Under the pieces are notes generated by a model. It was given only the letters and a program-made list of their open reading frames with translations, was not told the origin of the DNA and ran no database searches. Position numbers and translations under genes: made by a program. This document shows positions 1,548 through 64,000 of a stretch of 64,000 bases of DNA, piece by piece. Position 1 is the stretch's first letter, and every line of letters starts with the position of its first letter. This DNA is from Pelagomonas calceolata. Lineage: Eukaryota. Where the stretch lies: NCBI GenBank assembly GCA_918797485.1, contig CAKKNE010000006.1:3286001-3350000 (forward strand), read 5' to 3'.

Positions 1548-2877
1548 ATGAAGGACCATCCCCCGCGGCGCCGCCCGGCGGCGCTCCTGCCCCGACTCCT
1601 TCTCGCCGCGCCCGTCGCGGTCTTCATGGTGCTCTACGCGCGCACCGAACGAACGCGACGACCGGAAACCACGAAGGCGGGCCTCATCTATTTAAGAATC
1701 GCGGACCCGCGCCACCGCCAGGACGCGTTCCGCGCGAGCTGGCCGCCGTGGCTGCCCGCGCTCGAGGCCTCGGCGCGCGCGAACGCGCGGAGCGTGACGT
1801 ACTATTTTATCGGCGCGCCGGCGAACGTGACGTGCGTCAACTGCGTCGAGATTCCATTGGACCTCGCCGGCCTGCGGGCGCGCGTCGCGAAGTATCTGGG
1901 CGTCGCCGACATGGAAATCAAAAGCGTCAAAAATAAAATCTGCGACCTCAAGCCCATGTGGCCCGTGCTCTTCCCCGAGGTCAGCGCGCGCCACGAGTGG
2001 GTCGGCTTCGCGGACGCCGACGTGCTCTTCGGGGACCTCGCGGCCGAGGTCGACCTGCTGACGGCGTCTGATGATTTGCTCGTGCCCTCGAGCTGGCACC
2101 CCTACCCCCTGGCGAACGGCAACTTCATGCTCTTCCGGTCGACGGCGCGCGTGCTGCAGGCCTTCCGGGGCGCCGGCTGGCGCGAGGCGGTGCGCTCGCC
2201 GGGCTACTCGGTCTTCGACGAGTGGCACGGGCGCGGCTCCGCGACGGACTTCGGCCACGCGCTGCTCGAGATGCACCTGAACGGCAAGCTCCGGCCGAAG
2301 CCGACGAGCCGCCTGTTCCTGCAGGACGCGGTGTCCGGCGGCCGCGCGCTCATGGAGCGGCCCGCGGCGCTGCGCGCGACGTGGGCCCGCGGCCGCCTGC
2401 GCGTGGCGTACCGGGGCCCGTGCTACTGCTCCAAAGACGTCGTCCCCCACTGTGTGGAAATCAACCAGTGTGCCGGGTGCACTCATGAAGTCATTTCTCG
2501 GCAATGAGGCTGCCGTGCTGGCTCCGTCGAGTGGTGGGAGACCCATACCGCCACGCCGTTGAGAAGGCGTCGCGTCGATGGCGTGGAGGTCGACGCGACG
2601 ATTCAGCAGAACACGCCGCAAAATTTTGATTTTCACACAGGTCCCCCAGTTCGCCATCGCGCACTGCTCCGAGTGCGTCTTCCGGGCGGGGGCGACGCCG
2701 GACGTCACGGTCGCGCGGGACCTCGAGGTGCTCGCGTACCACATGCTCTACACGAAGCCTTGGATCGGCCGGAAGTACGCCGTCGCGCCGGCGCTGCGCG
2801 ACTGCGAGGCGTTCGCGCTCTGGAAGAGCGAGACGAGCCGCGAGCACCACCTAGAATGCGTCGACGCGCCCCGATAG
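1548..2877 (+). CDS. DUF6625-like type II membrane glycosyltransferase-like protein; join(1548..2441,2641..2877)
   Basis: N-terminal TM anchor; 'KICDLKPMW...WVGFADADVLFGDL' motif; removing intron 2442-2640 joins two ORFs in frame (KDV|VPQFAIAHC). Confidence 0.65.
2450..2640 (+). mobile_element. Introner element copy 1 (GT-AG intron 2442-2640, 199 nt, phase 0)
   Basis: TIRs ctgtgtggaaatca / tgattttcacacag; perfect 8-bp TSD gtccccca at 2442-2449 and 2641-2648. Confidence 0.95.
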
Positions 2878-3155
2878 CGTCGTAACGTATGAGCACCTTC
2901 TCAAACCCATCGGAGCCTAATCGGAGCCGACTCAAGTTCGGCGGCGTGATAGCATAATCGATTTTTTTACGACGGGGTCAAGGGGGGGTCCGATGGGGAC
3001 CGATTAGTTGCGGGGACGTCTCGATCTTGGCGGCGCGAGGAAGGGAGAGGGGATCACAGAGCACGGCCGCGGCGTCGGCTCCGTCGCCGTCGCCCCGGTG
3101 CAGCGACGCCTCTAAATCGCGGGTGATGGAATTGATTAACTCAAGTTGAAGTTTC

Positions 3156-3183
3156 ACTAATGTACCGCATGCGGTACATTAGT
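3156..3183. repeat. Perfect 28-bp palindrome
   Basis: actaatgtaccgcatgcggtacattagt equals its own reverse complement. Confidence 0.95.
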
Positions 3184-3257
3184 CTTACGCTAGCATCATG
3201 TAAGACACTAGCATGCTTGCGTCCTAGTCCAGCCGGACGGGTGGGCCCGGGGGGAGC

Positions 3258-3330
3258 GGGAGGGGTACGGGGGACCCTGCGACGTAACTAGCCTGAGCCT
3301 GAGCTAGCCTGAGCCTGAGCCTGAGCTAGC
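3258..3330 (+). repeat. Dispersed repeat B: G-rich head plus (GCCTGA)n tail
   Basis: gggaggggtacgggggacc..gcgacgtaactagcctgagcctga; related copies at 15663-15710 and 24685-24730. Confidence 0.85.
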
Positions 3331-3369
3331 AATCTCAGCTGCCCGTGGGACAGAAACGCGCATTTTACA

Positions 3370-7544: not shown

Positions 7545-10500
7545 ATGAAGGCGCGCCGCAGGAGCCGCCTCGCCGCGCTCGCGCTGGTCGTCGGCCGCGC
7601 GGCCGCGCAGACGCCGACCGCGTCTCCGACCTTCGAGACGTGGACGCCGACGTCGAAGCCGACGGATCGTCCGTCCAACACGCCGACGACCGGCGCGCCG
7701 ACGTACTGGACGCCGGCGCCCTTCGCGGCGCCGCCGGACGACTACGACCGCGACACGTTCGACCACGACCCCGGCACGTGCGGCAACTACGCGCCGAACG
7801 AGGTCTACACGGCGGAGGCGCTCGGGCTGAAGGGCGCCTACGCACTCGCCAACGACGGCGTGGACGGGGACTGCTGCTACGAGTACGTCCACAACGACTG
7901 CACGCACAACCCGACGGGCTTGCCGACCCTGGTGCCCACCGCGCTCCCGACAACCCAGCCCTCGGCGCTGCCCACGGTCGAGAAGCCGACGCCCATGCCG
8001 GTCTCGGACCCGACGAAGGTCCCGACGACCCTACCGACGTCGACGCCGACCTCGGCGCCGACGAAGGCGCCGACGAAGGTCCCGACGTCCCTCCCGACAT
8101 CCGTGCCGACGTCGGAGCCGTCGGAGGCGCCGTCGCCGGCGCCGTCGAAGGTCCCGACGGGCGTTCCGACGGAGCAGGACCCGACACCTTTGCCGACGAG
8201 CCCACCGTCGGCGGAGCCGACGTTAATCCCGTCTCCGACGCCGACGACGCCGCCGTCGTCGGCGCCCTCAGAGGCGCCGGTACCGGCGCCCACGAAACCC
8301 CCCACATCCATACCGACCACTCTGCCTACTTCGGAGCCGACGCCCACGTTCTCGCCGACGCGCACCCCGACGACCGTGCCGACGCCGGTCCCAATCTCCA
8401 AACCGACGCCGGGACCGTCAGCCGTGCCGACTCTCGTCCCGACCTCGTCGCCGTCGGCAAAGCCGACGTCCGAGCCGACGAAGTCGCCGACGACGATCCC
8501 GACCTCGCTGCCGACGGCGAGCCCGACGCCTTCGCCGTCGGCACCGCCGACCTCGGTGCCGACGTCGCCGACGTTTTTGCCAACTCCCCTCCCGAGCTCG
8601 GTGCCGACGTCGCGGCCGTCCGCCTTGCCGACGGCGTCCTGGTCGCCGACTGACTTGCCGACGTCCGTGCCGACGGCGCAGCCCCAGGTCTCGGCCAAAC
8701 CGACGGGGGTGCCGACCACGGTCCCGACGAGCGAGCCGACGATCCCCCTGCCGACGTCCGTGCCGACGGGCATCCCGACACCGGACCCGTCCGTGTCGCC
8801 GACGCCCGCGCCGACCGTGCAGCCGACGAACGGCGACTGCCTCGAGAAGATCACGGACTTCTGCCAGTGCACGTACGTGCTCTTCGAGGTCTCGCACACG
8901 CTCGCGCCGACGCCGGCGCCCACGACGGCGGTGCCCTCGCCGGGCCCGACGCCTGCGCCCACGCCGGTGCCCACGCCGGCGCCCACGCCCCGGCCCTCGG
9001 AACAAAAACCCCCGGGCGCTCCCGATCCGACGCCGAAGCCGACGCGGGTGCCGCGGCCCAGTCCGACCCGGGCCCCGACGAACGTGCCGACCTCGGTCCC
9101 GACGACGCCGCCGTCCCCCGAGCCGTCCGCCGTCCCGACGACGATGCCGACGTCCCGCCCGACGACCACCCCGACGCCCGCGCCGACGCCTCTGCCGACG
9201 CTCCCCCCGACATCCGTGCCAACGTCCATTCCGACGCCCGCGCCGATCCCGGTGCCGACGAAAATCCCGACGAGCGTCCCGACGTCGCTCCCGACGAGCG
9301 ACCCGACGGGCGTGCCGGTACCCGTCCCGACGGGCGCGCCGACGTTACCTCCGACGAGCGCTCCTTCGGCAAGCCCGACCTTCGACAGCTTCGCCCCGAC
9401 GGCCATGCCGACGACGGGAGCGCCGACGGTGAATCCGACGCTCGTCCCGACGTCCGTGCCGACGACCGAGCCGACGTCAGCGCCGACGAAAGTGCCCACC
9501 GCGCAGCCGTCGCTCGAGCCCACGTGGCAATCCCAAGCTCCAACCAAAACCCCGACGTCCGTGCCGACGACCGAGCCGACGTCCCAGCCGACAAGCGTGC
9601 CGTCCGGCGTGCCGACGAGCGCGCCGACGTCCCGGCCGACGCTGCCGCCGTCGCCCGTCCCGACGCCGTCGCCCACGGCCATGTGCCCTGCCATGGCGTG
9701 GCTCGAGGGCGATATGACGACGACCGGCTCCATGACGGCCCGGACCCGAGGGGCTCGAGGGGCTCCATGGACTGCGCACGAGGGCCCCGAGGCCATCACC
9801 AGCGCGGAGGACATCCGCGCCCAGGGCGGGCTTCTGGTCCTCGACCACAACAGGAATTGGGGCATCAAGGCCACGTGCTCCAACAACGCGGCCAAAAGTT
9901 GCGAGAGAGATGAGGATTGCGATCCCGGCAACACATGCGAGGCCAACGGCTGGGAGGGCGGCGTCAACCCGGCGAGCGGCATCGACGCCTGCTGCCGCTT
10001 CGTGCAGACGACGTGCCCGACGCCGCTGCCGTCGTCCGCGCCGACGTCGCCGCCGTCGCCGAGCCCGACGCTGCTGCCGTCGACGACCCCGACCAGCGTG
10101 CCGTCGAGCGTGCCCACGGTGCCGCCGTCGGAGACGCCGACGTCCGTCCCGACGGCCGAGCCCTCGGGAACCCCGACGATGATGCCGACGCCGCGGCCGA
10201 CGTTCACGCGCTACCCCTCGCCCGTGCCGACGATTCCCGCGCCCTCGCCCATCCCGACGAGCGTGCCCACGCCCTGGCCGACGACGGCGGTGCCCTCGCC
10301 GGGCCCGACGCCCGCGCCCACGCCGGCGCCCACGCCGGCGCCGACGAGCTGCCGCTGCGTCGCGTACTACGGCGTCAACCGCAACGTCGGCAACTTTGCG
10401 TTCCGCGACGACGGCCTCGTCTACGGCAGCCTGCCCGCGGTCAACCCGGCGTCGGAGCACTACGACCTCGCCTGGGCCGCCGGCGCGACGCTCAAGGACG

Positions 10501-11341
10501 GCTTCGACTGGGACGACTACCTGGCGGCGCGGGAGCACTTCTCCACGATAGCCACGAAGCAAGCGAACGCGGCCTCCTTCGCCGCGAAGAACGACTACGC
10601 GCCGCTGGGACCGGGCGCCGCGGGGAAGAACGGCGTGATTGCGAACACCGGGAACATCACCGCGGCAGAGCTCGCGCTGCAGGACGGGGGAACGACCCCC
10701 CCCAACAAGTACAGCTACAACATCACGGACATGGACAAGCGGTGCATCTACCGCATGGAACCGGAGCCGTCGGCCGCGCCGACGCCCAAGCCGTCCATCC
10801 CGCCGGGCGTGGCGGCGCCGACGCTCGCGCCGACGGTCACGCAGGCCGTCGTCGAGGTCTCGGCCGCGGTCGTGCTCACGGGCATCGACCCCACCGACTT
10901 CAACTCCGACCCGCAGCAGGTCGAGGCCTTCGCGCAAACGATCCTCGCGACCCTGCCCGCGGAGCTCGCGGGCGCCGAGGTCACGGACATCCGAGCCAAG
11001 TCCGCGCGTCGGCGGCGACTCCAAGCGGGCAGCGTCGAGGTCGAGTACACGATCGTCGTCCGACAGGACGCGACTACCGTGTCAGACGGCGGCCAGAGCA
11101 TCTTCAGCGACATTACGACGTCGCTTTCCGCGGCCGTGTCGAGCGGCGAGTTCCTCCAGACGCTCATCGAAGAGGCGGCCGCGGCGGGCGGGTCCGCCGC
11201 GATGGCGTTCATGACGATCGACGTCGACGTGACGGCGTCGACCGCGGCGATCAGTTCGGCGACCCTGACGCTCGTCATCACGACGCCGGCCCCCGTGGTG
11301 GCGACGCCGGCCCCCGTGGTGGCCCCGGCCGCCGCCGCCGC

Positions 11342-11507: not shown

Positions 11508-11965
11508 ACAAGCCCCCGCCCTCCCCCCGGGGCGCACCGGCCGGCCCGGGCCCCTGTTACCCCCTGACCAAACACCCCCGAGAAAAAAAAAACCGAAACC
11601 CCCAGTTGCACCGTCTAACTAGTTTCACGCTACTAGCTACATCGATCAAGCTTGCTGTCTCCTCGGTGCATAGAACGACTGCGCGCCAGCGTTTGGACTG
11701 CCCCGACGTCGCGTAGTGGAAGTCTTGAATGACACTTGGTGCGGGCAGCCAGGTCGGCTTCCATGTCCTAAGACTCCTAGTTCTAGTGTCTTTACGGGCC
11801 GCTAGCCACGAGCACGCGCGGCGCGGAGCCCTGGAAGCCGCGGTAGGGGCGGTAGCTCCTCAAACTGCAGCTGAAAGAGGCTTGCGATTAAGCAGCAGTT
11901 TTGTCTTGTCGCACGCCGACGGGAAAGGAGTCGCCTGGGGCGCGGACACCGCCTCGTCTGGGACC

Positions 11966-13240
11966 ATGAAGCGCCTCCTCCTCGTCGTGGTCGGCGGCAG
12001 CGCCCTCGTCGCGCGACGCCCGACGACGATGCGCGCGATGCAACCAGAGGCGCGCGCCCTTCGGACGAGGATCAAGACCCAAACTAAAATAAAACGGACG
12101 CTCGTGACGTTAGGAAGGGTCGCGCTGCCGTCCATGATCGCCACGGGCCTCGGCTTTGAGTACTACGACAATTTAAGCAGCTTCATCCAGGCGAACTGGT
12201 TGGATGCGAACTCCATTAAATTCTTGAGCAGCGACGAGATTCAATTTTTGCCGTCCTTTTTAACGGTGATCTCGTTATTATTTTCCATATTGGCGGGGAG
12301 CGCGTACTCGAGCCTCTACGCGCAGCAGGAAGCTATCTACTTCGCTCTGTATGCCGAGGTCTCGGAAGCGAAGTCCCTGCTGGAGCAGATGGCGCTGGTC
12401 TGCGCCGGCCGGCCCTTTTATAGGGACGCGCTGCGGGCGATGCGCGCCTACGTGAAGCAGGATCTGAGGAGACTGGACGTCGCGCCCGCGGATTTGATGG
12501 CGCGGCCGCCGAACGAGGACCCCCTCGAGGCCATCATGTACCTCACTTCTGTTGGGGTCCCGTCCGTCGTCTACGAGACGGTGCGCGACCTGCGGCAGGC
12601 GCGGGGGAGGAGGTTGGGGGCGATGCAGCGGAAATTTCCCCGGCTCGGCATCTTCCTCCTCTATTTACTAGCGCTGCTGGAGCTGGCGGCGTTCCCGCTC
12701 CTGGGCGCGGGGACAACCATCTCAGCGCCCTCGACGATCTTACTGGTCCAGGGCGCGCTGTTCGGGGGGTCAGCGCCTGTGTGGAAATCAACCAGTGTGT
12801 CGGGTGCTCATTTCTCGGTGATGACGCGGCCGTGTTGGCTCCGTCGAGCGGTGAGGAAGGGCATCGCCACGCCATCGAGCAAGCGTCGCGTCTATGGCGT
12901 GGAGGACGACGCGACGATCAAACGCGACGTAAAATTTTGATTTCCACACAGGTTGTGCGGCGCCACCACGTTGGTGTTACGCATCATCCAGGAGCTCTGG
13001 CGCACGTCGGGCGGCGCCTTCAACGTCGACGACGTGTTGCAGACCATGGTGCGGGGGCTGGCGGACGAGCTCGACGGCCGGGCGGAGCGCCTCTCGGAGG
13101 ACGCCTTTCCGGCGCCCGACGCCGCTCGGGGCCTGACGCCGGAGCAGCAGCGCGCCTTCGAGGCGCTCGACGCGGCGGACGCGGCGGCGCCGCGGAGGCG
13201 GTGGTGGCGGCGCGGAGGCGGTGGTAACGGCGGAAGTTAA
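11966..13240 (+). CDS. Multi-TM membrane protein, DUF4239/bestrophin-like, possibly plastid-targeted; join(11966..12768,12952..13240)
   Basis: Signal plus Arg/Thr-rich transit-like peptide; hydrophobic helices; splicing restores ALFGG|LCGATT. Confidence 0.55.
12777..12951 (+). mobile_element. Introner element copy 2 (GT-AG intron 12769-12951, 183 nt, phase 2)
   Basis: Intact TIRs; GT donor exactly 8 nt upstream of left TIR; TSD diverged (gtcagcgc vs gttgtgcg). Confidence 0.9.
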
Positions 13241-13254
13241 CTTGAAGTCATAAA

Positions 13255-15360
13255 TTATCGGTCACGGCCGCCGCCGACCCATCTCCGCGAGTCGTAGCGC
13301 GCGGCGCCCGCCTCCGCCGCGCGGCGCAGCGCCCGGGCTTCGCGGGAGACGGCTTGCGCGTCGGGCCAGGCGCGGCCAGCCATTGCCGCGACGTCGGCGG
13401 CGGAACGGAAGGCGCGGAGCGCGTCGAGCGCGTCGGCGGCGAGGCCCGCGGCTTCGGCCGCCGCGGGCGACGCGCCGAGGCCCTCGCGGGCCAGCGCCTG
13501 TGTGGAAATCAACCGGTGCGTCGGGTGCTACGCGAACGCGCCGTAAAATTTGAATTCCACGCGGGCCAGCGCGTCGCGCCACGCCAGCGCGTGGAAGAGG
13601 GCCAGGCCGTGCGGCGTGCCCCGCGCGCCGAGCGTCGCGCGGGGCAGCACGAGGCGCTCCCGGGCCGCGCGGCCCGCGGCCGCGGCCGCGAGCCCCGCCG
13701 CGCGCCGCGACGACGCGGCGCGCGGGAGCGCCGCCGCGAGCGCCGCCGCGACGTCGCCGGCCTCGAGCAGGTCGTCGACGCCGTCCAGGGCCTCCGCCGC
13801 GGCGTCCGCCTCCGCGCGGTCGGAGACGAAGCCGTGCTGCGCGCGCAAATATGCGTCGCGCCGCGCGACGGAGCACTCGGGCTGGACGTACGACACCGTG
13901 AGCGGGGCGCCCGCCTCCACTTTCCGCTGCGTCCAGACCTCGGCGAGGCCCCCGGCCGTCGTCAGCGCGACGCACGAGGGTTGCGGCGAGTCGTTCAGCA
14001 AACTCCTCAACCGGTAGAGGCCGGACTCGAAGGCGTTGAACTGCCACTTCTGCTCCAGCGTCGCGCCGTGCAGCTGCTCGATATGTAACGACGGGAGCGC
14101 CGCCGTGGGGTCCGCGATCGTCGCCTGCGCCTCGCGTGATAGGAGAGGCGCCTCGAGGAGCAGCAGCGTGCCGGCGTCGAGGTCGCGGGCCGCGGCGAGG
14201 CCGCGGCCGCCGCCCGTGGCCGGCGCGCTCACGAGGCGCAGCGCGGGGTGCGCGTAGAGGGGCGCGTAGCCGGGCGCGAAGGCCGCTAGGCGCGCGCAGG
14301 CGACGGCGGACGGCACGGGCACGGGCAGGGGCTCCGGCGGCGGCGCGGGCGGCGGCGGCGGCGGCGCGACGCCGTCGTCGTCCGACGACGAGCCGCCGAA
14401 GAGCGCCTCCGCCGCGGTCGCGCGGGCGAGGCCGACGCAGAAGCCGCAGCCCGCGGGCGGCACGCGCTCGGACAGCGCGCGCTCGACGGCCGCGGACGCG
14501 TGGTCGAGGCTCCAGGCGACGAGGACCAGCCGGTCCGTGGCCGCGACCAGCCGCGCGGCGACCTGGGGCCCGACGACGTCGGCCGGGTCGATCAAATTCG
14601 TCGCCGCGCCGCCCTGCGCGAAGGCCCGCGGCGCGGCGCCGGCGAGCGCCCCGAGCGCCGGCGCGTTATCTGCGGGCCCGACCCAGGCGAAGGCCGACTT
14701 CGCCCCGAAGCGCACGACGAGGCCCGATACGTTCGCGTCGTCCTCGTCGCGCACGGAAAAGCGTCGCTCCTCGAAACCTGGAGACGGCGCCATATCAAAG
14801 CTCTGCACCGTCCACGGGATTTTGATGATGGACGTGGACCGCAGCTCGACCTCGTCGAAGGCCTCCACGTAATTCGTGCGCTCGAAGCCGAGGGACGCGA
14901 AGAGTTTTAGGGAGGCGGCGTTCTCGGAGGCGATCTTCGCGACGAACGTCTCGAGATGGAGCGCCTCGCGGCCGTAGCGCAGCAGCAGCCGCACGGCCTC
15001 GCCCCCGAAACCGCGGCGCCGCCGTTCCGGAACCATGACGTCGACCTCGGCCGCGAGCGGCTCGTCGGGGACGGTCAGGAACGCGTTCACGTCGCCGACC
15101 ATCGCATTCGTGGGGAAGCGGTCGTCGCCATTCTTGAAGCACTGCGCCCGGTCCAAAACGATGAACGTGAGCTTCTTGGCGTCGTCGCGCCAGCTCTTCT
15201 GGTTCTCGACTTCCTCGTCGAGCGTCAGGCGCTCGCTCGCCGTCAGGGCCAGCAGGTCGTCGTCCTGCATCCAGGCGTGGTAGCGTTTTACGTACTTTTC
15301 CTTGTAGGGCACGAGGACGCAGCGTCTTCCTACGAGCACGGTGTCCTCGTTGAGGCGCAT
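13255..15360 (-). CDS. NAT9: NAT9-like GNAT acetyltransferase fused to PAC4-like and SET domains; complement(join(13255..13497,13573..15360))
   Basis: N-terminus 'MRLNEDTVLVGRRCVLVPY...YHAWMQD...LTASERLTLDEE...QKSWRDD..KLTFIVL' matches NAT9; SET motifs 'GRGLAAARDL', 'SLLNDS', 'LTVSY'. Confidence 0.75.
13498..13564 (+). mobile_element. Introner element copy 3, internally deleted, antisense to host gene (GC-AG intron 13572->13498, 75 nt)
   Basis: Left TIR intact, right TIR decayed (tgaattccacgcgg); perfect TSD gccagcgc at 13490-13497 and 13565-13572. Confidence 0.9.
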
Positions 15361-15710: not shown

Positions 15711-15748
15711 TCAGATTCCTACCTCGAGCGTCCAGTGCCGCTACGTTG

Positions 15749-27910: not shown

Positions 27911-30310
27911 ATGATGAGGCGTGCTGCCCCCCTGCTGGCCCTCGTCGCGGCCGCGATGGCGGACGGCAACGCCACGAAACAATGCGAGCCCTTCCGCATC
28001 GTCAGCGACCACAACGGCTTCGGGAACGCGATCTTCGCGTTGTATCGAGCCTTCGCGCAAGCACAGCGGTGCGGGACATCAGTAGAAATCCTCTCCAATA
28101 AAGAGAAGCACGACCGCCTGTCTCGCATCTGCGCGCGCCTTACGTGTGAAGGCGCGACCATCAAGGACCAGGGTTCATTTAGATGGGGCGAGGATCGAGC
28201 TGGTTTATTATCGACTTCCTTGGGGGGCCAGGAGAACGCCTGCCCGCCCGGGTGTGGGCTGCGGGGCGGCAAGCGTATTCATGTTACTCGCATGCCAGTC
28301 GATTCTGCAAAGTTCACGCCCTCCAACAATGGCGCGTGGCTGGCGCCGTTGACATGCGTCGGTGGTGATAATACTGGTAAGTTCACCACAGCAGCACATA
28401 TCCGGTCGATCCGCTTTGATTTTGAAAAATCGCCGAAGGAGGTCCTGACGCGCGCGCGGACCCACCCCGACGACCGGGAGAATGATACGATGTCGTCCTA
28501 CAAAGGGCGCGACGACGGTCACATGTTGTACGACGTGGACGAGTGGCGGTTCCTCGCCAATCATATACGAGACGGTGTGAATAACATCTACATCGCCTCG
28601 GACAACGCGCCGGCGCGCGATGAATTAGCAATGAGGATCGCCGATGGTGGAGGCACGGCGTGCTTCGTTAACAGAGCGTCGGGCCACTCGTCCTGGCATT
28701 ATGGGGAGGAGGCCGACGACCACGCGCTGACGGACTGGTGGCATTTAGCACAAGCCCAGACCATCCACCAGATCGATTTGCGGTGCCGGGGGAGGACGGC
28801 GCATTCCTGCCAGTTCAATCGCAAAAGATGTCCCCGGGGCTCGGTCAAGCGCGGCCGCAACAACGCCGGGTCAAGCCACTGCCGCGGGTCCTCCTTCTCG
28901 CACGCGGCGCACCGGCTCTACGCGGGCACTCGAACGCGCGCCTACACGTGCGTTAATTGTCAGACCTTGTCGTCGGCGGCGCCGGGGGCCAAGGAGTCGC
29001 GTCGCGACGCCGACACGGCGGCGGCGGCGGCGGCGGCAGCACCCGCCGCGGCAATCAAAGGCAACTGCACGTCCGACATCGAACGGAAACTTATTGAACT
29101 CCTCCCCGGCCCGGGCATCCTATCAAGAGGAGAGCTGAGCAAGAAAATCGCGTGGGTCCCCGACGAGCGAAAGTCGTGCGTCGTCGCGCGGAGCTTGCTG
29201 GAGATCCGCGCGACGCTAAACCCGGCGCACGACCTCGTGGAGGCCGTATCCAAAAGCGTGTCCGGGCGACGCACGACGCGGCTCTCGGCGACGACGCGGA
29301 GGCGCTCCCGCAAGGCCCTCGGCGACGTCTTCTTCGAGGCGTTTCTGGACATTGCGTCAGATAGGCTCCTGGCGCTGGACGCCTGCCCCGCATCGACTCC
29401 GACGAAAACGTTGATCTGGTTCGTCACGCGCCGCGACGCCAAAGCTCGGCTCTGCGTCAAATTGGCATTGGCGGCGCTCGAGGCCGAGGCGCGAGGCTGG
29501 GGTTTGGGACTTGTCCATACTGATCCAGAAGCCGCCGCGGCCGTCGTCGACGCCCTGCCGGAGCGCTGCCGCGGCCGCGTCGCCCTCAAATCGGCCAAAG
29601 GGCTTGCTGACGTGATCCTAATGAAGCAGAAATGGGGCGACGATAATCCCCAATTTACGAGGTGGGACCTGTCCTGCCTCCAGGCGTCTTCGGTCTACTA
29701 CGAGGGGCTGGACGCGCCCGTTGTGATCGCGGGCGGCGAAGATGTTTTAGTGAGACGCCCGATCACGGACGACGAACTGGCCTACACGATGCTCGGGGCG
29801 CCGTGGCGGCGGACGCAGATTAGGTTCGGGGGCAACGGGGGCTTCGCCGTGCGCGACCCGGCTTTTGTCAGGGCCGAAGGCCGTGTGGAAATCAACCAGT
29901 GCGTCGGGTGCACGAACCGGCATCGCCACGCCATCGAGAAGGCGTCGCGTCGATGGCGTGGAGGTCGACGCGAAGATTCAGCAGAACGTTCCGCACAGGC
30001 CGAAGGGATTACGATCGACCCGCGCGAGAATTTGGACGCGTGGGCGAACGCCTGCCGGAAGATGGGTAAAAGGGCCGACGACGTCCACCTCTCATATAAG
30101 CTCGGACTGCTCTATGATCGAGGGAACCTAGGCGCGTTCAAGCCCGCGTCGCGGGAAGTTTTGTTGAACTTCGCCGCGGAGATGGTCGAGAGCCCGGGCG
30201 ACCCCGCGGCGCTCCACGCGGCCTGGCGCCATCTATCGATAGACTACGTCGTCCGGCAGTTCGAGAAGGTTGTTAGTGTCGTCCGCGACTTCGAAGCGCC
30301 TGCGGCCTAA
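27911..30310 (+). CDS. Fucosyltransferase-like (NodZ/GT23-type) plus DUF5672-like two-domain protein; join(27911..29872,29999..30310) if spliced
   Basis: 'NGFGNAI', 'AAHIRS', 'IYIASDN', 'DWWHLAQA'; then 'LGAPW...GGNGGFAVRD'. Confidence 0.6.
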   Translation: MMRRAAPLLALVAAAMADGNATKQCEPFRIVSDHNGFGNAIFALYRAFAQAQRCGTSVEILSNKEKHDRLSRICARLTCEGATIKDQGSFRWGEDRAGLLSTSLGGQENACPPGCGLRGGKRIHVTRMPVDSAKFTPSNNGAWLAPLTCVGGDNTGKFTTAAHIRSIRFDFEKSPKEVLTRARTHPDDRENDTMSSYKGRDDGHMLYDVDEWRFLANHIRDGVNNIYIASDNAPARDELAMRIADGGGTACFVNRASGHSSWHYGEEADDHALTDWWHLAQAQTIHQIDLRCRGRTAHSCQFNRKRCPRGSVKRGRNNAGSSHCRGSSFSHAAHRLYAGTRTRAYTCVNCQTLSSAAPGAKESRRDADTAAAAAAAAPAAAIKGNCTSDIERKLIELLPGPGILSRGELSKKIAWVPDERKSCVVARSLLEIRATLNPAHDLVEAVSKSVSGRRTTRLSATTRRRSRKALGDVFFEAFLDIASDRLLALDACPASTPTKTLIWFVTRRDAKARLCVKLALAALEAEARGWGLGLVHTDPEAAAAVVDALPERCRGRVALKSAKGLADVILMKQKWGDDNPQFTRWDLSCLQASSVYYEGLDAPVVIAGGEDVLVRRPITDDELAYTMLGAPWRRTQIRFGGNGGFAVRDPAFVRAEGRVEINQCVGCTNRHRHAIEKASRRWRGGRREDSAERSAQAEGITIDPRENLDAWANACRKMGKRADDVHLSYKLGLLYDRGNLGAFKPASREVLLNFAAEMVESPGDPAALHAAWRHLSIDYVVRQFEKVVSVVRDFEAPAA
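29881..29998 (+). mobile_element. Introner element copy 4 (GC-AG intron 29873-29998, 126 nt, stop-free and in frame)
   Basis: Perfect TSD gccgaagg at 29873-29880 and 29999-30006; left TIR ccgtgtggaaatca; right TIR eroded to ttccgcacag. Confidence 0.9.
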
Positions 30311-49727: not shown

Positions 49728-51211
49728 TCACGACAGGAAGTCGTCGTCGTCGGCGTAGGCCTCCGCCAGCGCCGCGGCCGTCGTGCGCGCCGTCAGCGTC
49801 GTCGTCACCACGACCAACAGCACGCCCGCTATGAGTAAAACGGCGTCCTCCGCCACCGGGAGGCCGTTGCGCTTTGCCAACAACAAATGTACCAAAGGAG
49901 GCAGCGCAAATGATAAAGTGCACACCGCGACGGCGCCCACTAAACCGACGACCAAGGCGAAGGCCGGCATGGCGTAGGCGACGAGCGCCGCGGCGACGGC
50001 GACGAGGCCTCTTACCACAAGCCGACGGCACCGCGGGATCCGCGCCTCGACGATCTCGCCGCAGCCCACCAAACCAATAGGAATCGACGCCACGCAGGCC
50101 GCGGCCATGGCCAACCGTACCAAAGTAGGAGTAACCCCCATGGGGAGGGCGTCCAAGACGTTGCCGGGCACCGAGTCGTCTGGTGCTGGCCCATCATAAA
50201 GTCGGGCCACGCCGGCGCCCACGATCACGTACGCCGCGAACGCCGTAAACAAAGCGACTCTTTGTGCTGCGGCAAAGCGCTCGGGAGCGGCCATCGATGC
50301 TTCCAAATGCAGCGCCACGGGCGCGACCTGTGTGCACCCGACAAGTCCTCACTAAGTCATTTCTCGGCGATGACGCGGCCGTCCTGGCTCGGTCGAGCGG
50401 TGAAGAACCGGCATCGGCACGCCATCGAGCAGGCGTCGCGTCGATGGCGTGGAGGACGACGCGAAGATTCAGCACGAACGCGCCGTAAAATTTTGATTTC
50501 CACACAGGTCGCGACGCCGAAACAAAAGGCCATCACTCCCACCGCGGCCCCCACATCAGCGACGGAGTCGGGCTTCGTCCAGTCGAAGGTGCCGCTCTGC
50601 GCCCATCCCAATCTTTCCCTTCTCAAAACGCCGTAGAGCGCGATGGCCGCGAGCGAGCAGGCGAGGGCTACCAACGCAGCAGCTCCCGCGGCCGCGAGCG
50701 AGCCGAAGTCGTCGACCAACGCGAGCGGTACGGCGGCCGCGGCGGCCAGCGCGACGTCGACGCCGAGCGGCAGTGCTAAGGGAGTAGCTCTCACGAAGTC
50801 GTGGAGCGCTACTAAATATGCCACAGCTACGCCAAACATCAAAACGAAGAAGACGGCCTCGACGACGCCCGCGACCGCCGCGCCACAGACCTCGCGGGTC
50901 AGCGCCGCGAGCGGGGACTCGCCGCCGCCTTCGTTAAATCGACGCAGCGCATCGGCGTCGAGGAGGTCGCGCGCCTGGATGAGCCGGCGCCCCGCCCAAT
51001 CATTCCACGCCAACAACGCGAGCAGCGCCAGTGCGCATGGCAATACGCCTCCGGTCGAGAATGCGTGCGGCACAGCGAGCACGCCTGTACCGATACAAAA
51101 CTTTAGCATCGTCGTCACAGCCCCGAGAAATGACGTGTTGCCCGTCTTGCTCCCGCTGCCGGCGAGTGGCAGGGTCTCGCTGGGTCTACGCGAGCCGAGT
51201 GGTTCCGGCAT
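49728..51211 (-). CDS. Amino acid transporter (AAAP/SLC36-38 family); complement(join(49728..50327,50516..51211))
   Basis: 'LKFCIGTGVLAVPHAF', 'LVVGLVGAV..CTLSFALPPL'; splicing gives FCFG|VAPVALHLEASM. Confidence 0.85.
50328..50507 (+). mobile_element. Introner element copy 5, antisense to host gene (GT-AG intron 50515->50328, 188 nt, phase 0)
   Basis: TSD ggcgcgac (50320-50327) / gtcgcgac (50508-50515); right TIR intact; left TIR shortened to ctgtgtg by a deletion. Confidence 0.92.
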
Positions 51212-55115: not shown

Positions 55116-55401
55116 GCATCGGTGGCGTAAGGTCTTTCCCTTTACCTTGTCGCGGCGACGGCCCGGGGACGCGTTTATTTTGCTAGTGTCTTACTGCGCT
55201 AGCCCACGCATACGCTGCTTTTGGATCGGCTTGCGCGCGCACGCTACGGGCCGCGCAGCACTTGGAGAACTGTGGGACGTCAACGTTTTGCTATCTCTTC
55301 CGCACGAGACCGTTGGTTTTGCTGCAAATAGCGCGAGCGCACGCATTGCATCTCACACTGTAGCCTGCATCTATTCGTCGCAGCAGTCAAGGGCTCGCAC
55401 C

Positions 55402-57114: not shown

Positions 57115-57117
57115 ATA

Positions 57118-57648
57118 CTAAGTCTTATGGTAGTCACTCTTGCCCCCCGTCTTTTCGATGAGTCGCAGGTCCTCCACTCTTATGGAGTGACTGAGGGCCT
57201 TGGTCATGTCGTAGACGGCTAATGCCGCGATTGAAGCTCCAGACAGAGCCTCCATCTCGACCCCAGTTCTGTGAGTTGTGGTGACCGCACAAGTCACCTC
57301 CAACGCAAGCTCCTGCTCCTCGAAGGACACGTCGCACGCGTCGAGCGCGACGGGATGGCAAAACGGTATGAGTGAAGAAGTTCTCTTCGCCCCTTGGACG
57401 CCGGCGACGACGGCCGTCGCCAGGACCGGGCCCTTCTTTCCAGCGAAGCCGCTCGCGGTTAACGTGTCCCAGGCATCCCGCGGGAAGACGACGCGGCACC
57501 TTGCAATAGCTTTGCGCGTCGTCGTCGTTTTGTTCGACACGTCGACCATGCGCGGCAGGCCTTTGGTCGCGTCGACGTGGGAGAGCGTCTTCGACGACAA
57601 AGCGCGGTGGCTTGCGCGCCGCGCAACAATGGTACAGCAGCGCTGCAT
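57118..57648 (-). CDS. moaC: Cyclic pyranopterin monophosphate synthase (MoaC/CNX3)
   Basis: 'LSHVD...MVDVSNK', 'AKRTSSLIPFCHP', 'TGVEMEAL', 'YDMTKA', 'EKTGGKS'. Confidence 0.95.
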   Translation of the reverse strand: MQRCCTIVARRASHRALSSKTLSHVDATKGLPRMVDVSNKTTTTRKAIARCRVVFPRDAWDTLTASGFAGKKGPVLATAVVAGVQGAKRTSSLIPFCHPVALDACDVSFEEQELALEVTCAVTTTHRTGVEMEALSGASIAALAVYDMTKALSHSIRVEDLRLIEKTGGKSDYHKT

Positions 57649-58001
57649 CGTGTGTGCAGGGTGTCAAAGCGATCCGAAACGCCGCTGGAGCGTCGTCTGC
57701 GATCTGTATTTGACTTTTACGTGCGTTTGACGATCTGTGTTATGCCGCGGCGGGCGCACTAGTGCAGCTTGGCGGCTGCACCTCGGGCAGCTCTGCGCAG
57801 CGTCGAGTGATGCCTCCGAGACGCGCAGCTCTCTGACACAAGACCGATCTCCAACAGTCACATATGTTGGGGCATTGGTCGAAAAGCGCGTTTGTTATCC
57901 GGTAACGCGCCTCGCGCGCGCGTTTCAGCCCTGTGGTAAAGAACGCTCTCTGGGCTTTCATTTGCTCCCGCGCCGCCGGCTGACGCATCAGGATAGGCAG
58001 G

Positions 58002-59879
58002 ATGCGGTCCCTCGTCTGCGCACTACTGTTGCTCGCATGCTACGCCGTCGACGCGCTCTGCAGCGAGACGCGCGACCCGGTCGGCTGCGTCGCGAAGGGG
58101 TGCACGTGGTGCGCCGCCGCAACGCACCGCGGCTGCAGTCGGAGCGGCGGTGCGTGCCCAAAGCACTGCAGCACGACCAAGCACCTCGGTGACCTGGCGT
58201 CGTGTCCCGACCTGCCGGTCACACGAGTTTCGGCGACCGATGCGGGCCCGACCGTAGGCGCCGCAGGGCCTGACACGTCGGCCATAGCGTCCTCGGTCCT
58301 GGTGTCCGGCCCTAGCTCGCCCGTCGGCGTCGGCGTGGGCTTCAGCGGCGGCGGCTCACGCGCGTTCGCGTGCACGTTCGGCTGGGTCCGCGCGTTGCGC
58401 GACCTCGGGCTCTGGCACGCGAACCTGACGGTCGCCGGCATCTCAGGGGCGGCCTGGTTTTTGGCCCCGTTCGCGTACGCGACCGCGGACGAGGCGGCGC
58501 TCTTAGGCGAATACCTCGAGCCGGAGCGCCTCTCGGCCAAAATGGTCGCGGCGTCCGGCGGCAGCATGGCCTCGTTACCCGGTCCGATCATCGCGAAATG
58601 CACAGCGCGCCTCCTCGGCGTCCTCGGGACGCTCGACAGCGAGGGTCTCGGGCGCATCTGGCGCGACGTTATTGATTCTACATTCCTCAAACCGTTGGGA
58701 GTGGTGGGAACGCGGCCGGTCGCTGCCTCTGCGGCCGCAGCCGCCGATCTGAAGCGGCGAAACCCCGGGACCTTTGATCGGAAGCTTTATAAGCCGCTCG
58801 TGCCGCGCAACGCGAGCGCACCGGTGCCCATTATGCTCGGCGCGCTGGAGGGCCCCGCCTCTATAGCGCCGCTCAAAAGTGACGCGCCGTACTTTTCACT
58901 CGCAATGGGGCCTAATTGGGCGGGCGTGCCCGGCGCCCGGCGCGTCACCTACACGTCTCGACGGAAGAACCACACGGAAACGGTCGCGGTGGGTGGTTTT
59001 GTCGAATCCTGGGCGTTGGGGGCGATACCATTCCTCACCGTCGAGCAGACGATGCCGCGGGGACGGCGCCGCGTCGATGGCGTCGGGGAACACGTCGAAG
59101 TCGCGTTGGGCACGGCACCCACCGGCATCGCGGACTCGCTCGGCATCGCGTCGATGGCGCCGGCGCGGCTTTTTCTGGAGAGCCTGCCGCCGATTGGCCG
59201 CGCCATCTCGGCGGGCACGGGCTTCCTCGACACGGTGCCTACCGTCCGCGTCTGGGCGTCCTCCGTCGACGAGGCGCCGACGACGCCTCCCCTCCAAGCC
59301 GTCGGCGACGGCGGCGACCTGAGCAACACCGGCGCGCCGTATTTGCTCCAGCGCGGCCACGACCGCCTGGTGATATTTGATTGCGCCGAAACTCCTCTTA
59401 ACGTGTCCTGGGACCCGCGCGCGCGGTCGCCGACGACGACGGACGTCGACGCCTATTTGCCGCCGCTCTTCGGTCTCCGGTCTCGCGGAGACAAGGGCGT
59501 CGAGGCGGAGACCGCCCGCAATCACGTGTTCGACACCGAGGGTTTCCCGCGGTTGGTCGAGGCGCTCCAGGCGGCGGCCAGGAGCGGCTTCGGCGCCGTG
59601 GCGCGCGTGGCGCTCACGACAGTGCGCAACGACTTCTTCGGCGTCGAGGCCGGGCGCGCCGTCGACGTGACGCTCGTTTATTTAGATCTCCCGAAACGAT
59701 GGGTCGACGCGCTCCCGAAGGAGACGGTCAAGGCAATCCGCCGCTACCGAGGATTCCCGGAGACGCCGACGATCTCGGACCTCGACCTTACGCGGAGCGA
59801 GGTGTCGCTGCTCGCGCAGCTCTGCTCCTGGGTCGTCCGGCAGCACGCGGACCTGCTCCGCGACGCGTTGTTGTACTAA
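58002..59879 (+). CDS. Secreted lysophospholipase/patatin-like (cPLA2-type) hydrolase
   Basis: Signal peptide, Cys-rich N-terminus, 'FSGGGSRA', 'GISGAAW' nucleophile motif, 'DGG'. Confidence 0.7.
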   Translation: MRSLVCALLLLACYAVDALCSETRDPVGCVAKGCTWCAAATHRGCSRSGGACPKHCSTTKHLGDLASCPDLPVTRVSATDAGPTVGAAGPDTSAIASSVLVSGPSSPVGVGVGFSGGGSRAFACTFGWVRALRDLGLWHANLTVAGISGAAWFLAPFAYATADEAALLGEYLEPERLSAKMVAASGGSMASLPGPIIAKCTARLLGVLGTLDSEGLGRIWRDVIDSTFLKPLGVVGTRPVAASAAAAADLKRRNPGTFDRKLYKPLVPRNASAPVPIMLGALEGPASIAPLKSDAPYFSLAMGPNWAGVPGARRVTYTSRRKNHTETVAVGGFVESWALGAIPFLTVEQTMPRGRRRVDGVGEHVEVALGTAPTGIADSLGIASMAPARLFLESLPPIGRAISAGTGFLDTVPTVRVWASSVDEAPTTPPLQAVGDGGDLSNTGAPYLLQRGHDRLVIFDCAETPLNVSWDPRARSPTTTDVDAYLPPLFGLRSRGDKGVEAETARNHVFDTEGFPRLVEALQAAARSGFGAVARVALTTVRNDFFGVEAGRAVDVTLVYLDLPKRWVDALPKETVKAIRRYRGFPETPTISDLDLTRSEVSLLAQLCSWVVRQHADLLRDALLY

Positions 59880-59890
59880 TAGTATGCTTG

Positions 59891-60685
59891 TTACCAAGGT
59901 ACTTGCCTTCCATCGTAGTCGATGAATGACCCGGACGCCGACGCGTTCAGCGCAGCGATGCGCCGGAAGAGGCCCGCCGCGGACACGGTGGCGACGACGT
60001 CGCCGCGGTCACCTGTCATGGGTGTCGCCACGTACCCAGGATGCAACAATACGACGGACATACCTTTTGGCCGCAGGTCCACGGCGAGCGAGCGGCCCGC
60101 GGCGTTGAGGGCCGACTTGCTCATGCGGTAGGCGTAGTTCGCGCCGAGTCGCGTGTTCGAGGCGACGGAGCCGAGCTTCGAGGAGACGAAGGCGATCTTC
60201 GCGCCGGTCCCGAGGAGGCCCTCCTTGAGGCAGGCTTCCGTGAGGCGCAGCGGCCCGACCGCGTTGATCTCGAAGGCTCTAGCTACGAGGCCATAGTCCA
60301 ACGATCCAAGGGTCATCGGCTCCGTCGTGCCCGGGTAGACTACAGAAGACAGCTGCCAGGTCGCGACGCCGGCGGCGTGGACCAGGACATCGACGGCCGT
60401 CCGCTGCCGCTTCAGCCCGTCGACGAAGGCGTTCACCTTCTCGGGACTCGTCACGTCGAGGCCGAGCAGGACCTTCACGCGATTCGCGACGCTCGCTTTT
60501 GATACTAACTGGTGGACGTGGGCGCTCCGGCTGCGGCACGCGGCGACGACGTCGTAGCCCGCGCGGGCGAATTGCACGACGAGCTCGGCGCCGATGCCGC
60601 CGTTCGCACCAGTAATTAAGGCGACGGCGCCGCGGGCAGTGTGCGTCGTTATGACGAGGAGCAGGCAGCGCAACGCGCGGCGCAT
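59891..60685 (-). CDS. Short-chain dehydrogenase (C-factor/CsgA-like SDR)
   Basis: 'LITGANGGIG', 'YRMSKSALN', 'LHPGYVATPM', 'FIDYDGRQVPW'. Confidence 0.9.
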   Translation of the reverse strand: MRRALRCLLLVITTHTARGAVALITGANGGIGAELVVQFARAGYDVVAACRSRSAHVHQLVSKASVANRVKVLLGLDVTSPEKVNAFVDGLKRQRTAVDVLVHAAGVATWQLSSVVYPGTTEPMTLGSLDYGLVARAFEINAVGPLRLTEACLKEGLLGTGAKIAFVSSKLGSVASNTRLGANYAYRMSKSALNAAGRSLAVDLRPKGMSVVLLHPGYVATPMTGDRGDVVATVSAAGLFRRIAALNASASGSFIDYDGRQVPW

Positions 60686-61000
60686 CCTTATCTGCTGCCC
60701 GGCGGTACGTGTGCGCGCGGCTGGTCTCACGCTGCCTTTTGCTGTGTGTCCGAGCCGCGCGCCCGCGAGCGGCGGCTCCTGCTTGCTGCCCGCGCCTGTT
60801 GAGGGTGGCTGGAGGCTGCCCGCCTCGCGAATTGTGCCGATCTTTGCCGTAGCGCGGGAGGCCAAGCGCTGTGCAGAGCGCCAGGCTGGACAGCCAGTTG
60901 GCGCCCCCCAATCTCTGGCGGTCGGACGCCGCGCGGGGCCACGCCCGTTTGTTTGCGGCGTCGAGGAGCTCTCTTCGACGGCGCCCCCGACGGCCCGAGT

Positions 61001-61079
61001 GGGCAGCGCCCGCGTGGGCGGCGCCCCCAGCAGACGGTCGTGACCGACCGAGGGCAGCGCCTGCGTGGGCGGCGCCCCC
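61001..61079 (+). repeat. 28-bp direct repeat (2 copies, 51-bp period) in a divergent promoter
   Basis: gggcagcgcc(c/t)gcgtgggcggcgccccc at 61001-61028 and 61052-61079. Confidence 0.85.
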
Positions 61080-61085
61080 GAGAAG

Positions 61086-62648
61086 ATGATGCGCTACGCT
61101 TTGCTGGTGGCGCTCGTCCGGGCGAGCAGCCACTGGCTCGACGCCTACGAGCAGCGGGGCTACTTCGTGCTGCCGCGCGTCTTCTCGGGCGCGCGGCTGA
61201 TGCACCTGCGGGCCGCGGTCGCGCGGTACCTCCGCGACCACGGGAAGGATCATGAGTACATGATGCGCGGCGAGAAGCTGGGCGGCTGGTGCGCGTCAGT
61301 GCATAAATCAAGTCGTCGCGTCTCCGCGCGGCCGTGTTATCGCGGAGACACACAGGTTCGTGCCCGGCATCGAGCGCATCGACCAATTAAAAATCTTCGA
61401 GGCCGAGGTCGCGAGGGACGAGCGGCTGGCGAGGATATTAAGAAGAATACTGGGAGACGACTTTAAGCTCCTGGAACGGAGCGAGATCTACGTGTCGAGG
61501 ATCGGCAACTGGCACTCCGACGACTTGTACGACGCCTTTGATTTGTACGCGACATCATTACCGTACGTCGCCGAGGAGTGGTGCCCGCCGACGGGCCCGA
61601 AGAGGCCGCCGCCCCTCGCGAAGCCCAACACGCGCGCCGCCCCGCCGAAGGACGACGACGAGCTCTGCGCGCAGGGCATGGAGTATGGCTTCGGGAAGGC
61701 GACGACGTTCTGGGCGGGCGAAGGCACCGCCCACGAGCGGCGGGTGACGACGGTCGCCGTCTACCTCGAGGACCACGCCGACAACGAGGGCGGGCTGTCC
61801 GTGGCGCCCGGGAGCCACCGGAACGCGAGCGTGCACGGCGACACCGTCGCGCGATTGGATCCGTGGAGCCCGTCGCACCGGCCCGAGGCCGAGACGCCCT
61901 TCGATTTGATACGGAGCGGCGCGGGCGACGCCGTCGTCTTCGACTCGCGGCTGGTGCACCGGGGCCCGCGCGACGACGTCGCCGACTTCAAGCGGGAGCT
62001 GAGCCGGTCGAGGCGGACGGTGGCGACCTGTGTGGAAACCAACCAGTGCGTCGGGTGCACCCGACAATTCTTCACTAAGTCATTCCTCGGCGATGACGCT
62101 GCCGTGCTGGCTCCGTCGAGCGGTGAGGAACCGGCACCGCCACGCCATCGAGCACGCGCAACGCGCCGTAAAATTTTGATTTCCACACAGGTGGCGACAT
62201 TTTCGTTCGGGCGGAACAACGCAGTGTCCGAGGCTGTGTGGAAATCAACCAGTGCGTCGGGTGCAATTCTTCACTAAGTCATTTCCCGGCGATGACGCGG
62301 CCATCCTGGCTCGGTCGAGCGGTGAGGAACCGGCATCACCACGCCATCGAGCAGGCGGCGCGTCGATGGCGTGGAGGTCGACGCGAAGATTCAGCACGAA
62401 CGCGCCGTAAAATTTTGATTTCCACACACAGGTCCGAGGCCTTCTCGCGGGGCATGCGCTTCCGCACGGACATGCTCTTCAACGGCAGCATCTGCGGCGC
62501 GCAGCGCGACAAGAATGGGGATCCGGACTTCGGCGCGCCGTGCGCGTTCGACGCCGTCCGCGAGGACCTGGCGCGGCGGCCGCTGCGGGGCGTGCCGGAC
62601 GGGAGGCCGTTCCTCGAGGCCCGCCGGGACCTGGCTCGGAGGCGATGA
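61086..62648 (+). CDS. PhyH-like 2OG-Fe(II) dioxygenase; join(61086..61288,61356..62019,62191..62225,62432..62648)
   Basis: 'YEQRGYFVLPRVF', 'WHSD', 'GGLSVAPGSH', 'AGDAVVFDSRLVHRG'; three introns restore the frame. Confidence 0.8.
62028..62190 (+). mobile_element. Introner element copy 6 (GT-AG intron 62020-62190, 171 nt, phase 0, stop-free)
   Basis: Perfect TSD gtggcgac at 62020-62027 and 62191-62198; both TIRs present. Confidence 0.95.
62234..62431 (+). mobile_element. Introner element copy 7 (GT-AG intron 62226-62431, 206 nt, phase 2)
   Basis: Perfect TSD gtccgagg at 62226-62233 and 62432-62439; right TIR has an extra CA unit. Confidence 0.95.
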
Positions 62649-62701
62649 CACGAGTAATTACCATCGGATGGACCATTGCGGGGCGGGCGGAGGCGAAGCG
62701 A

Positions 62702-64000
62702 CTACGCGGGCGCGACCGCGCCGGTGCGGCTCGGCGCCCGCAGGCACCACACCGCGCACGGGTGGCAGAACATCGTCCAGCCCATCAGGCTAATTCCCAC
62801 GAGTAGGCCCATCGGCGAGTAATAGAACCTGTGTGGAAATCAAATTTTTACGGCGCGTTCGTGGCCGTCGAGTCATCGACGCGACGCCGGCTCGATGGCG
62901 TGGCGATGCCGGTTCCTCGCCGCTCGACCGAGCCAGGACGGCCGCGTCATCGCCGGGAAATGACTTAGTGAAGAATTGTCGGGTGCACCCGACGCACTGG
63001 TTGATTTCCACACAGAGTAGAACATCGTGGGGGCCTTGAACCAGTAGTCGTGCCTGCCGCATCTCCGCAAGTGCCCCTTCGATTCGTGATGCTCCCACCA
63101 AACGCACGTGTCAAAGCGTTGTGGTACAAGAGCGGAGACCATCCAGAGGCCGGTAAAGAAGAAAAACCAAGCGAAACTGTGGAAGCACAGATTATCCCAC
63201 GCGAACCGCGTGCAGCCGCAACTCGTCGCCTCGGAGAAGACCACCTTATCGAGTTCCTTCTGCGCGTCGTCGTCGGCCTCGGCCTGGAGCATCTCGGCGA
63301 TCTCCCGGCCGAGCCGCGACTGCGCCAGACCCTCCTCGCCGCCGGCAATCCTCAAAAACACCTTCTCCATCGTCGCGCGCGCGAGCGAAAAGTCGATCAC
63401 GCCGAGCCGCGCGCAAGCGTCGTCGTCGAACGCGCGGAACGCGAGCGCCGGCGTCCGCCGCGGGTCGACGCCCGCGAGCTCGAGCGTCGCAATGTCCGCG
63501 TCCGCGGCGGCGACGTCGACGTCCGGCGACGAAAAGGCCTCGCGCGCGAACGCCACGAGGTCCGCAACGTGCGCGTCGTCCCGCGTCTCCAGGCGGCACG
63601 AGATCTCGTAGCCCGCCGCGTAGCGCTCCTTGAGCTCCTGCGGCGTCCCGATGCAGCGCATGGTGCCCTTGACCATGATGCCGAGGCGGTCGCAGAGGAG
63701 ATCAGCCTCGCCCATCGAGTGTGTCGTCAGGACGACGGCGCGGCCCTTCATAGTGACCTTGATGAGGTCCCAGAGATTCCTTTGCGCTCCTGGATCCAGG
63801 CCCGACGACGGCTCGTCCAGCAACACCACCGAGGGGCCGCCGACCAGCGCCACCGCGACCGCCAGCTTGCGCTTCATGCCCCCCGACAGGCGGCCGGCCG
63901 CTTTGTCGGCGTGGTCGGACAGGCCGACGACGGCGAGCGCTTGCTCCGCGGCGTGGCGCGCGTCTCCTTCGATGTCGACGCCCCGGAGCCGCGCGAAGAG
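62702..64000 (-). CDS. ABCA-family transporter, 3' part; complement(join(62702..62828,63024..>64000))
   Basis: 'LSGGMKRKLAVAVAL', 'LLDEPSSGLDP', 'LTTHSMGEAD.LCDRLGIM', 'TMEKVFL'; runs off the window end. Confidence 0.88.
62829..63015 (-). mobile_element. Introner element copy 8 (GT-AG intron 63023->62829, 195 nt, phase 2)
   Basis: TSD aatagaac (62821-62828) / agtagaac (63016-63023); both TIRs intact; element lies on the minus strand. Confidence 0.95.

Follow-up and report, generated by a model that had tools for sequence, protein, structure and literature searches.

Short inverted-repeat elements spliced from coding exons of Pelagomonas calceolata and their likely spread as a non-autonomous DNA transposon

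The stretch of the Pelagomonas calceolata genome analyzed here (64,000 nt of contig CAKKNE010000006.1, assembly GCA_918797485.1, positions 3,286,001 to 3,350,000; hereafter the window, whose own numbering is used throughout) contains eight short homologous elements with terminal inverted repeats (TIRs), which the initial annotation regarded as introners, i.e., intron-generating miniature inverted-repeat transposable elements (MITEs). All eight were re-located in the window sequence, each inside a coding exon, and every copy is named below after the first coordinate of its element. Intron 1 (2442..2640, + strand, 199 nt) is composed of a perfect target-site duplication (TSD, 2442-2449) and the 2450 element (2450-2640), while the second TSD copy (2641-2648) stays exonic; it lies in sense orientation and phase 0, with a GT donor, in a DUF6625-like open reading frame (ORF). 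Its spliced frame comprises 344 and 78 codons with a third-position GC content (GC3) of 0.98 in both parts, its retention would lead to a stop after 21 codons, and the support for this copy is its frame and its TSD. Intron 2 (12769..12951, +, 183 nt; GT donor, phase 2), made of an 8-mer and element 12777-12951, interrupts a bestrophin-like gene, and intron 3 (13498..13572, -, 75 nt; GC donor, phase 0), with the perfect TSD at 13565-13572 and element 13498-13564 in antisense orientation, interrupts a GNAT/SET gene and takes its acceptor from the left TIR of the element. Intron 4 (29873..29998, +, 126 nt; GC donor, phase 0), a TSD plus element 29881-29998, is in frame and stop-free, and its right TIR is eroded with CACAG retained. 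Intron 5 (50328..50515, -, 188 nt; GT donor, phase 0), with the TSD at 50508-50515 and element 50328-50507 in antisense orientation, lies in an amino-acid transporter gene, and its left TIR has been shortened by a deletion. Two introns separated by only 35 nt reside in a PhyH gene: intron 6 (62020..62190, +, 171 nt; GT donor, phase 0; TSD plus element 62028-62190), which is also in frame and stop-free, and intron 7 (62226..62431, +, 206 nt; GT donor, phase 2; TSD plus element 62234-62431). Intron 8 (62829..63023, -, 195 nt; GT donor, phase 2), with the TSD at 63016-63023 and element 62829-63015 in sense orientation, belongs to an ABC-transporter gene whose frame is continuous after its removal.

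In all eight copies the homologous repeat occupies the intron right up to the splice boundaries. The copies are 76-93% alike over aligned columns, and their column-majority model measures 202 nt, or 210 nt together with the 8-nt target. When the window was searched with the TIR 14-mer at up to 3 mismatches, 16 matches were found against 1.82 expected, a number reached by 0 of 100 shuffles, and element ends account for 14 of the 16. The TIRs, 14-15 bp long, are complete or nearly so at both ends of five copies, and one end is incomplete in the remaining three (left of 50328, right of 29881, right of 13498). As for the TSDs, 8 is the only length from 3 to 12 that fits, and seven of the eight copies match at 7 or 8 of 8 positions, a level (at least 7 matches) attained by 0.16% of random 8-mer pairs. 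The duplication had been described as perfect in five copies, with one mismatch in two (50328 and 62829) and diverged in one; the first two counts stand, but "diverged" is too mild for the 12777 copy, which has no recognisable duplication at all. Read in the sense of the host gene, the upstream 8-mer begins with GT in six copies and GC in two, and the element ends in CACAG in all eight, so that the donor and acceptor assignments of the initial annotation hold; these two dinucleotides occupy 18.4% of host-exon positions, and eight donors out of eight would arise by chance with p ~1e-6. Excision of the 8-mer and the element restores a continuous, high-GC3 frame at every site, as had been predicted. 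The intron phase is 0 in five copies, 2 in three and 1 in none. Intron length is a multiple of three in five of the eight, and two introns (29881 and 62028) lack an in-frame stop; because these two are both in frame and stop-free, frame restoration is insufficient as proof of their splicing. Relative to the host gene, six copies are in sense and two (13498 and 50328) in antisense orientation.

Splicing was evaluated with RNA reads and with proteins deduced from transcripts or annotation. Four poly-A runs of one sample were aligned to positions 11700-30500, where 15 of 72 rows of read joints were listed, and a second alignment covered positions 44500-64000, where 15 of 482 were listed; the two stretches include seven of the eight elements, and the RNA results below refer to these listed rows. 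The removal of the 12777 element together with its 8-mer is demonstrated by a GT..AG joint that skips 183 nt and is supported by 23, 20, 18 and 23 reads (84 in total, in all four runs). Likewise, a joint at 29881 skips 126 nt with 28, 32, 28 and 17 reads (105 in total, again in all four runs); nine letters fit both sides of this joint, corresponding to the TSD, and the first of the possible shifts gives GC..AG. All but 2 of the 189 junction reads run in the direction expected of sense RNA. The spliced products of these two host genes are also identical to known proteins, that of the 12777 host to CAH0380118.1 of P. calceolata (363/363 residues) and that of the 29881 host to P0269 (756/756). 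For the PhyH gene, the protein deduced from the spliced window agrees with the transcriptome protein P0013 at 372 of 372 residues, a match that requires the removal of three introns, i.e., that at 61289-61355 and those containing the 62028 and 62234 elements. PhyH proteins of 428 residues were considered as possible cases of intron retention, a view that was rejected because they proved to be N-terminal extensions. At 13498 a homolog with 75% identity, P0280, spans the junction without a gap, and at 50328 the Pfam model Aa_trans is matched at positions 2-207 by the upstream exon and at 211-406 by the downstream exon. Exact removal is thus documented by reads at two sites and by a transcriptome protein at two further sites, and by homology or frame only at the other four, meaning that scarless splicing is shown for four copies and is likely for the remaining four.

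The comparison with empty sites gives direction to these events. Alignment of the PhyH region yielded eight metagenome loci, five of which (L001, L002, L004, L005 and L006) span both PhyH insertion sites, and the 62028, 62234 and 62829 sites were found empty, with a single target copy left, in close or outgroup DNA. L002, 94.7% identical to the window, lacks all three elements plus exactly 8 nt each, giving gaps of 171, 206 and 195 nt; since it covers three genes of alternating strand, it must represent genomic DNA. L001, 95.7% identical, lacks the 62028 element and carries that at 62234, and both PhyH sites are empty in L004 and L005 (80% protein identity) and in L006 (61%). This DNA comparison tests gain at three of the eight sites. 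At the 29881 site, protein P0272, which comes from a 35.7-kb contig and is 90% identical over the matched part, has an in-frame, TSD-bounded insert that starts like a family element. Two DNA runs aligned to 44500-64000 contained no empty sites, with 0-1 differences from the window in the 16 pieces listed. The initial annotation had proposed a recent large-scale burst of intron gain. It was right to the extent that some insertions segregate among haplotypes about 95% identical, but the copies are only 76-93% alike and a relative about 90% identical in protein sequence also has its 29881 site occupied; the insertions span several ages and do not represent a single burst.

The absence of a transposase from the window, noted at the outset, was upheld by Pfam scans, in which 92 of the 97 ORFs of at least 200 codons gave no transposase match; the scans left out the other five, which are alternative frames in a Pro-Thr repeat gene. 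The TIRs, the TSDs, the occurrence of both orientations and the empty sites suggest cut-and-paste transposition in trans. The summed depth of contigs is 4-5e5 on the element versus about 600 on unique DNA; the family may thus run to hundreds of members, although this is a rough indication and not a copy count. An 8-bp TSD and short TIRs are features of hAT and P elements, the type that the initial annotation proposed and of which this family may be a candidate member; both features are shared with other superfamilies and are not diagnostic. Tc1 elements generate 2-bp TA duplications, and because the duplication here is 8 bp, a Tc1-like gene does not fit as the source. One such Tc1-like DDE gene is the sole transposase-like entry in the part considered here of the gene table for P. 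calceolata (Guerin et al. 2022), and PF05699, PF02892, PF05485, PF12017, PF10551 and PF12762 are absent from the same part. The TIR 21-mer had 0 matches in viral contigs and 1 match in prokaryote genomes. The latter lies at the tip of a 2.7-kb contig of a proteobacterial metagenome-assembled genome (MAG), where L009:2643-2675 is a copy of the left end of the element, likely due to algal contamination.

The mechanism of Aureococcus introners was reportedly described by Huff, Zilberman and Roy in 2016. The introners of Aureococcus anophagefferens resemble the present family in taking one splice site from the element and recruiting the other from the TSD, and in possessing TIRs and direct repeats of constant length (10.1101/2020.10.14.339549, PMC7789003, PMC11282704), and introners of this type insert in nucleosome linkers (PMC9860276). 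The host is a different one, however: the identical protein CAH0380118.1 identifies it as P. calceolata, and A. anophagefferens was rejected as host, since its orthologs, which are empty at the PhyH sites, reach just 61-63% identity; the two families are likened by mechanism and not by sequence. Classes 6, 8 and 10 of the introner-like elements of Polarella glacialis (10.1101/2020.10.14.339549) likewise obtain the donor from an 8-nt TSD and the acceptor from the element end, and occur in both orientations with a bias, whereas they belong to an unrelated lineage and include GA among their donors. The introners of Micromonas (PMC11282704; PMC4540971) are also MITE-like, scarless and polymorphic for presence or absence in wild populations, the last being known from Simmons et al. 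2015 (PMC4540971), but they have a 3-nt TSD and take the donor from the element and the acceptor from the TSD, the reverse of the Pelagomonas arrangement. In P. calceolata itself, Guerin et al. 2022 (PMC9481584; preprint 10.1101/2021.10.25.465678) reported, in the sections considered, a set of 956 putative introner elements that use GT and GC donors and have an AG acceptor, a conserved TIR and an intron-length peak at about 210 bp. The present family agrees with that set in species, splice signals, TIR and length (202 + 8 = 210 nt), and very likely constitutes its bulk; TSD length, orientation, empty sites, population polymorphism and deletion pattern are found only here, as judged from the same sections. 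The genus Pelagomonas was not found by term search in PMC12130899, and, outside the subscription literature, no published work was found that deals with the TSDs of Pelagomonas introners, with their polymorphism or with a palindrome-linked decay. The mechanism and the presence of introners in P. calceolata are therefore already known, and what merits a follow-up is the observations on populations and decay.

It is very probable that these short TIR elements in coding exons of P. calceolata, spliced without a scar as described above, spread as a non-autonomous DNA transposon whose enzyme is encoded elsewhere, and the Aureococcus-like scheme put forward in the initial annotation, with a donor from the TSD and an acceptor from the TIR, is borne out by the RNA junctions, the transcript- and annotation-derived proteins and the empty sites. 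In this scheme, insertion duplicates 8 bp of the exon, as is seen when occupied and empty sites are compared, and the copy would persist in coding sequence, presumably by selection, if the duplicated 8-mer starts with GT or GC in the sense of the gene, as it does at all eight sites. The spliceosome, whose involvement is suggested by the GT/GC-AG boundaries, would then find its donor in the GT or GC of the TSD and its acceptor in the CAG at the opposite end of the element, so that one target copy and the element leave together and the original mRNA is restored. Both TIRs, when read outward, end in CAG, and either orientation would consequently work. Deletions, many of them arising at an internal palindrome, would subsequently erode the interior and spare the acceptor in use; the pattern is visible in the copies, and its cause is proposed.

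That the elements are true introners spreading through RNA, with the excised intron being reverse-spliced or reverse-transcribed and the TIRs serving RNA structure, seems improbable. The predicted fold of the intron at 62234, a long hairpin in which the TIRs pair at the base (z = -3.35), would suit this idea, as would the lack of a transposase in the window and the solitary Tc1-like DDE gene in the part of the gene table considered. Reverse splicing would, however, be expected to produce sense-only copies carrying their own donor, whereas two of the eight copies are antisense to the host and each copy has its own 8-bp exon duplication supplying the donor, which means that the copied unit is something other than the excised intron. 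It is less probable still that old introns were later hit by a MITE and that the empty alleles represent intron losses. The missing TSD of the 12777 copy and the occupied 29881 site of a relative whose proteins are about 90% identical could be read in that way, but the element extends exactly to the acceptor AG, the first 8 bases of the intron duplicate the first 8 of the next exon in seven of the eight copies, and both the sister-lineage and the Aureococcus-like DNA are intron-free at the PhyH sites 62028 and 62234. A different question is whether the family might be a distinct, uncatalogued one and not the published P. calceolata elements. This would accord with the absence of the TIR, as text, from the part of the Gozashti et al. 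2022 supplement considered here, where the TSD and TIR of the Pelagomonas MAG families are given as "?". It is nevertheless unlikely, considering the agreement in species, GT/GC-AG signals, TIRs and the 210-nt length, and a family of hundreds of copies would be hard for RepeatScout to miss.

Several points weigh against the preferred interpretation. Direct RNA joints were seen at just two of the seven elements in the aligned stretches, among the listed rows. No joint was listed for 13498, where host depth is about 5, nor were the four joints expected in 44500-64000, including those of 50328 and 62829, listed in an alignment swamped by reads from other copies; neither antisense copy (13498, 50328) consequently has an RNA joint among the listed rows. 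Within the 12777 copy, 11, 3, 6 and 12 sense reads bear the window letter at 12893, compared with the 23, 20, 18 and 23 junction reads, and these may reflect partial retention or may derive from other copies. The same copy is mismatched at 6 of the 8 positions of its 8-mer, leaving its TSD unrecognisable, and yet it is spliced exactly. Neither a transposase nor an autonomous element turned up in the window, and cut-and-paste movement is deduced from TIR and TSD. An empty allele by itself would be compatible with a site never inserted or with precise intron loss, although the outgroups favour gain. Finally, it is by species, length and splice signals, and not by compared sequence, that the family is equated with the set of Guerin et al. 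2022. Introners explain how genomes can gain hundreds of introns in short episodes, and the family described here provides a clean worked example.

The family model contains a perfect 16-bp palindrome at positions 23-38 (62050..62065 in the window), which is intact in the 62028 and 62829 copies, and two further inverted repeats. Six of the eight copies have a deletion breakpoint within the palindrome, corresponding to 6 of the 12 deletions of at least 5 nt, with a naive binomial probability of 0.005 in a post hoc test that ignores shared descent. The acceptor in use is intact in all eight copies, the unused end is mutated in two of the eight, and a wild allele at 13498 (P0372) has its unused end still intact. 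Fast degeneration has been reported for fungal introner elements. Among stored proteins that span the respective site, 3 of 41 enter the element at 62028 and 24 of 47 at 62234, so that the 62028 insertion looks rarer than that at 62234, but DNA and RNA contigs are mixed and samples clustered in these counts, which thus do not give an allele frequency. The full palindrome is present in 3 of the 24 proteins that enter the 62234 element, and at least five shortened forms exist, some of which may stem from chimeric assembly. The PhyH gene accordingly occurs as empty, singly occupied and doubly occupied alleles, in addition to several deletion variants of one inserted copy. When 61356-62645 was compared with L001-L003, the haplotypes proved to be mosaic, and the identical tracts within them reach 384 bp, which points to recombination in wild populations. 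The L001 copy at 62234 has the same odd end as the window copy and other deletions, and shows 0 differences over 159 aligned bases, while the exons differ at 29 of 913. Homing was considered on the basis of this identity and dropped, because mosaic haplotypes with identical tracts invalidate the independent-sites p = 0.006.

One reading of these alleles, which we consider about evenly balanced, is that wild P. calceolata is still gaining introns: insertions would segregate at differing frequencies on haplotypes that recombine, and every new intron would shrink fast through deletions triggered by its own palindrome, giving rise to an allele series per site. If this is true, ocean metagenomes would make it possible to measure directly how selection acts on newborn introns and how these decay into ordinary-looking short ones. 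The population side is still worth studying, since P. calceolata is abundant in public ocean data.

Other introns and repeats of the window are of related interest. The PhyH gene has a further 67-nt GT-AG intron at 61289-61355 (+), which ends in ACACAG, is missing in L001-L006 and is spliced out in P0013; it shows no BLAST likeness to the family and no clear TSD, and it might be another recent gain or a far-eroded element. The introns at 54415-54554 and 56396-56557 (both +) are 82% alike over 94 nt, with the ends TTCCACGCAG and TTCCACACAG, and share the core motif of the main family with different 5' ends; the latter interrupts a 5'-nucleotidase gene and is missing in L004. They likely represent a second, older introner subfamily. 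A predicted 89-nt GC-AG intron at 23733-23821 (-), in a gene similar to PEP-mutase/isocitrate lyase, contains the core 14-mer of the family and an ACACAG end and is possibly an eroded introner; scattered matches to this 14-mer, mostly intergenic or coding, were excluded from the copy count. The left flanks of the 12777 copy (12767-12776) and of the 13498 copy (13488-13497), 721 bp apart, share 9 of their 10 bases; the original target copy at 12777 may have been overwritten by gene conversion, and chance is also possible. At the intergenic spot 24771-24790, RNA reads from elsewhere link the TIR of the family, via 8 other letters, to matching sequence, which suggests a further subfamily that has this TIR but differs in its interior. 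A predicted intron at ~53957-54072 (+) attracts a pile-up of reads and contigs from other loci and is probably a third repeat family. Short, CTAG-rich intergenic repeats common to distant spacers are located at 3258-3302, 15663-15709 and 24686-24730, and also at 18621-18665 and 41014-41065. A large gene at 7880-11100 (-) encodes mucin-like Pro-Thr-X-X repeats (12 bp) and has no Pfam match, and an ordinary 341-nt intron by the start of the ribosomal protein L18a gene (25564-25905, -) is confirmed by 500-2000 reads per run.

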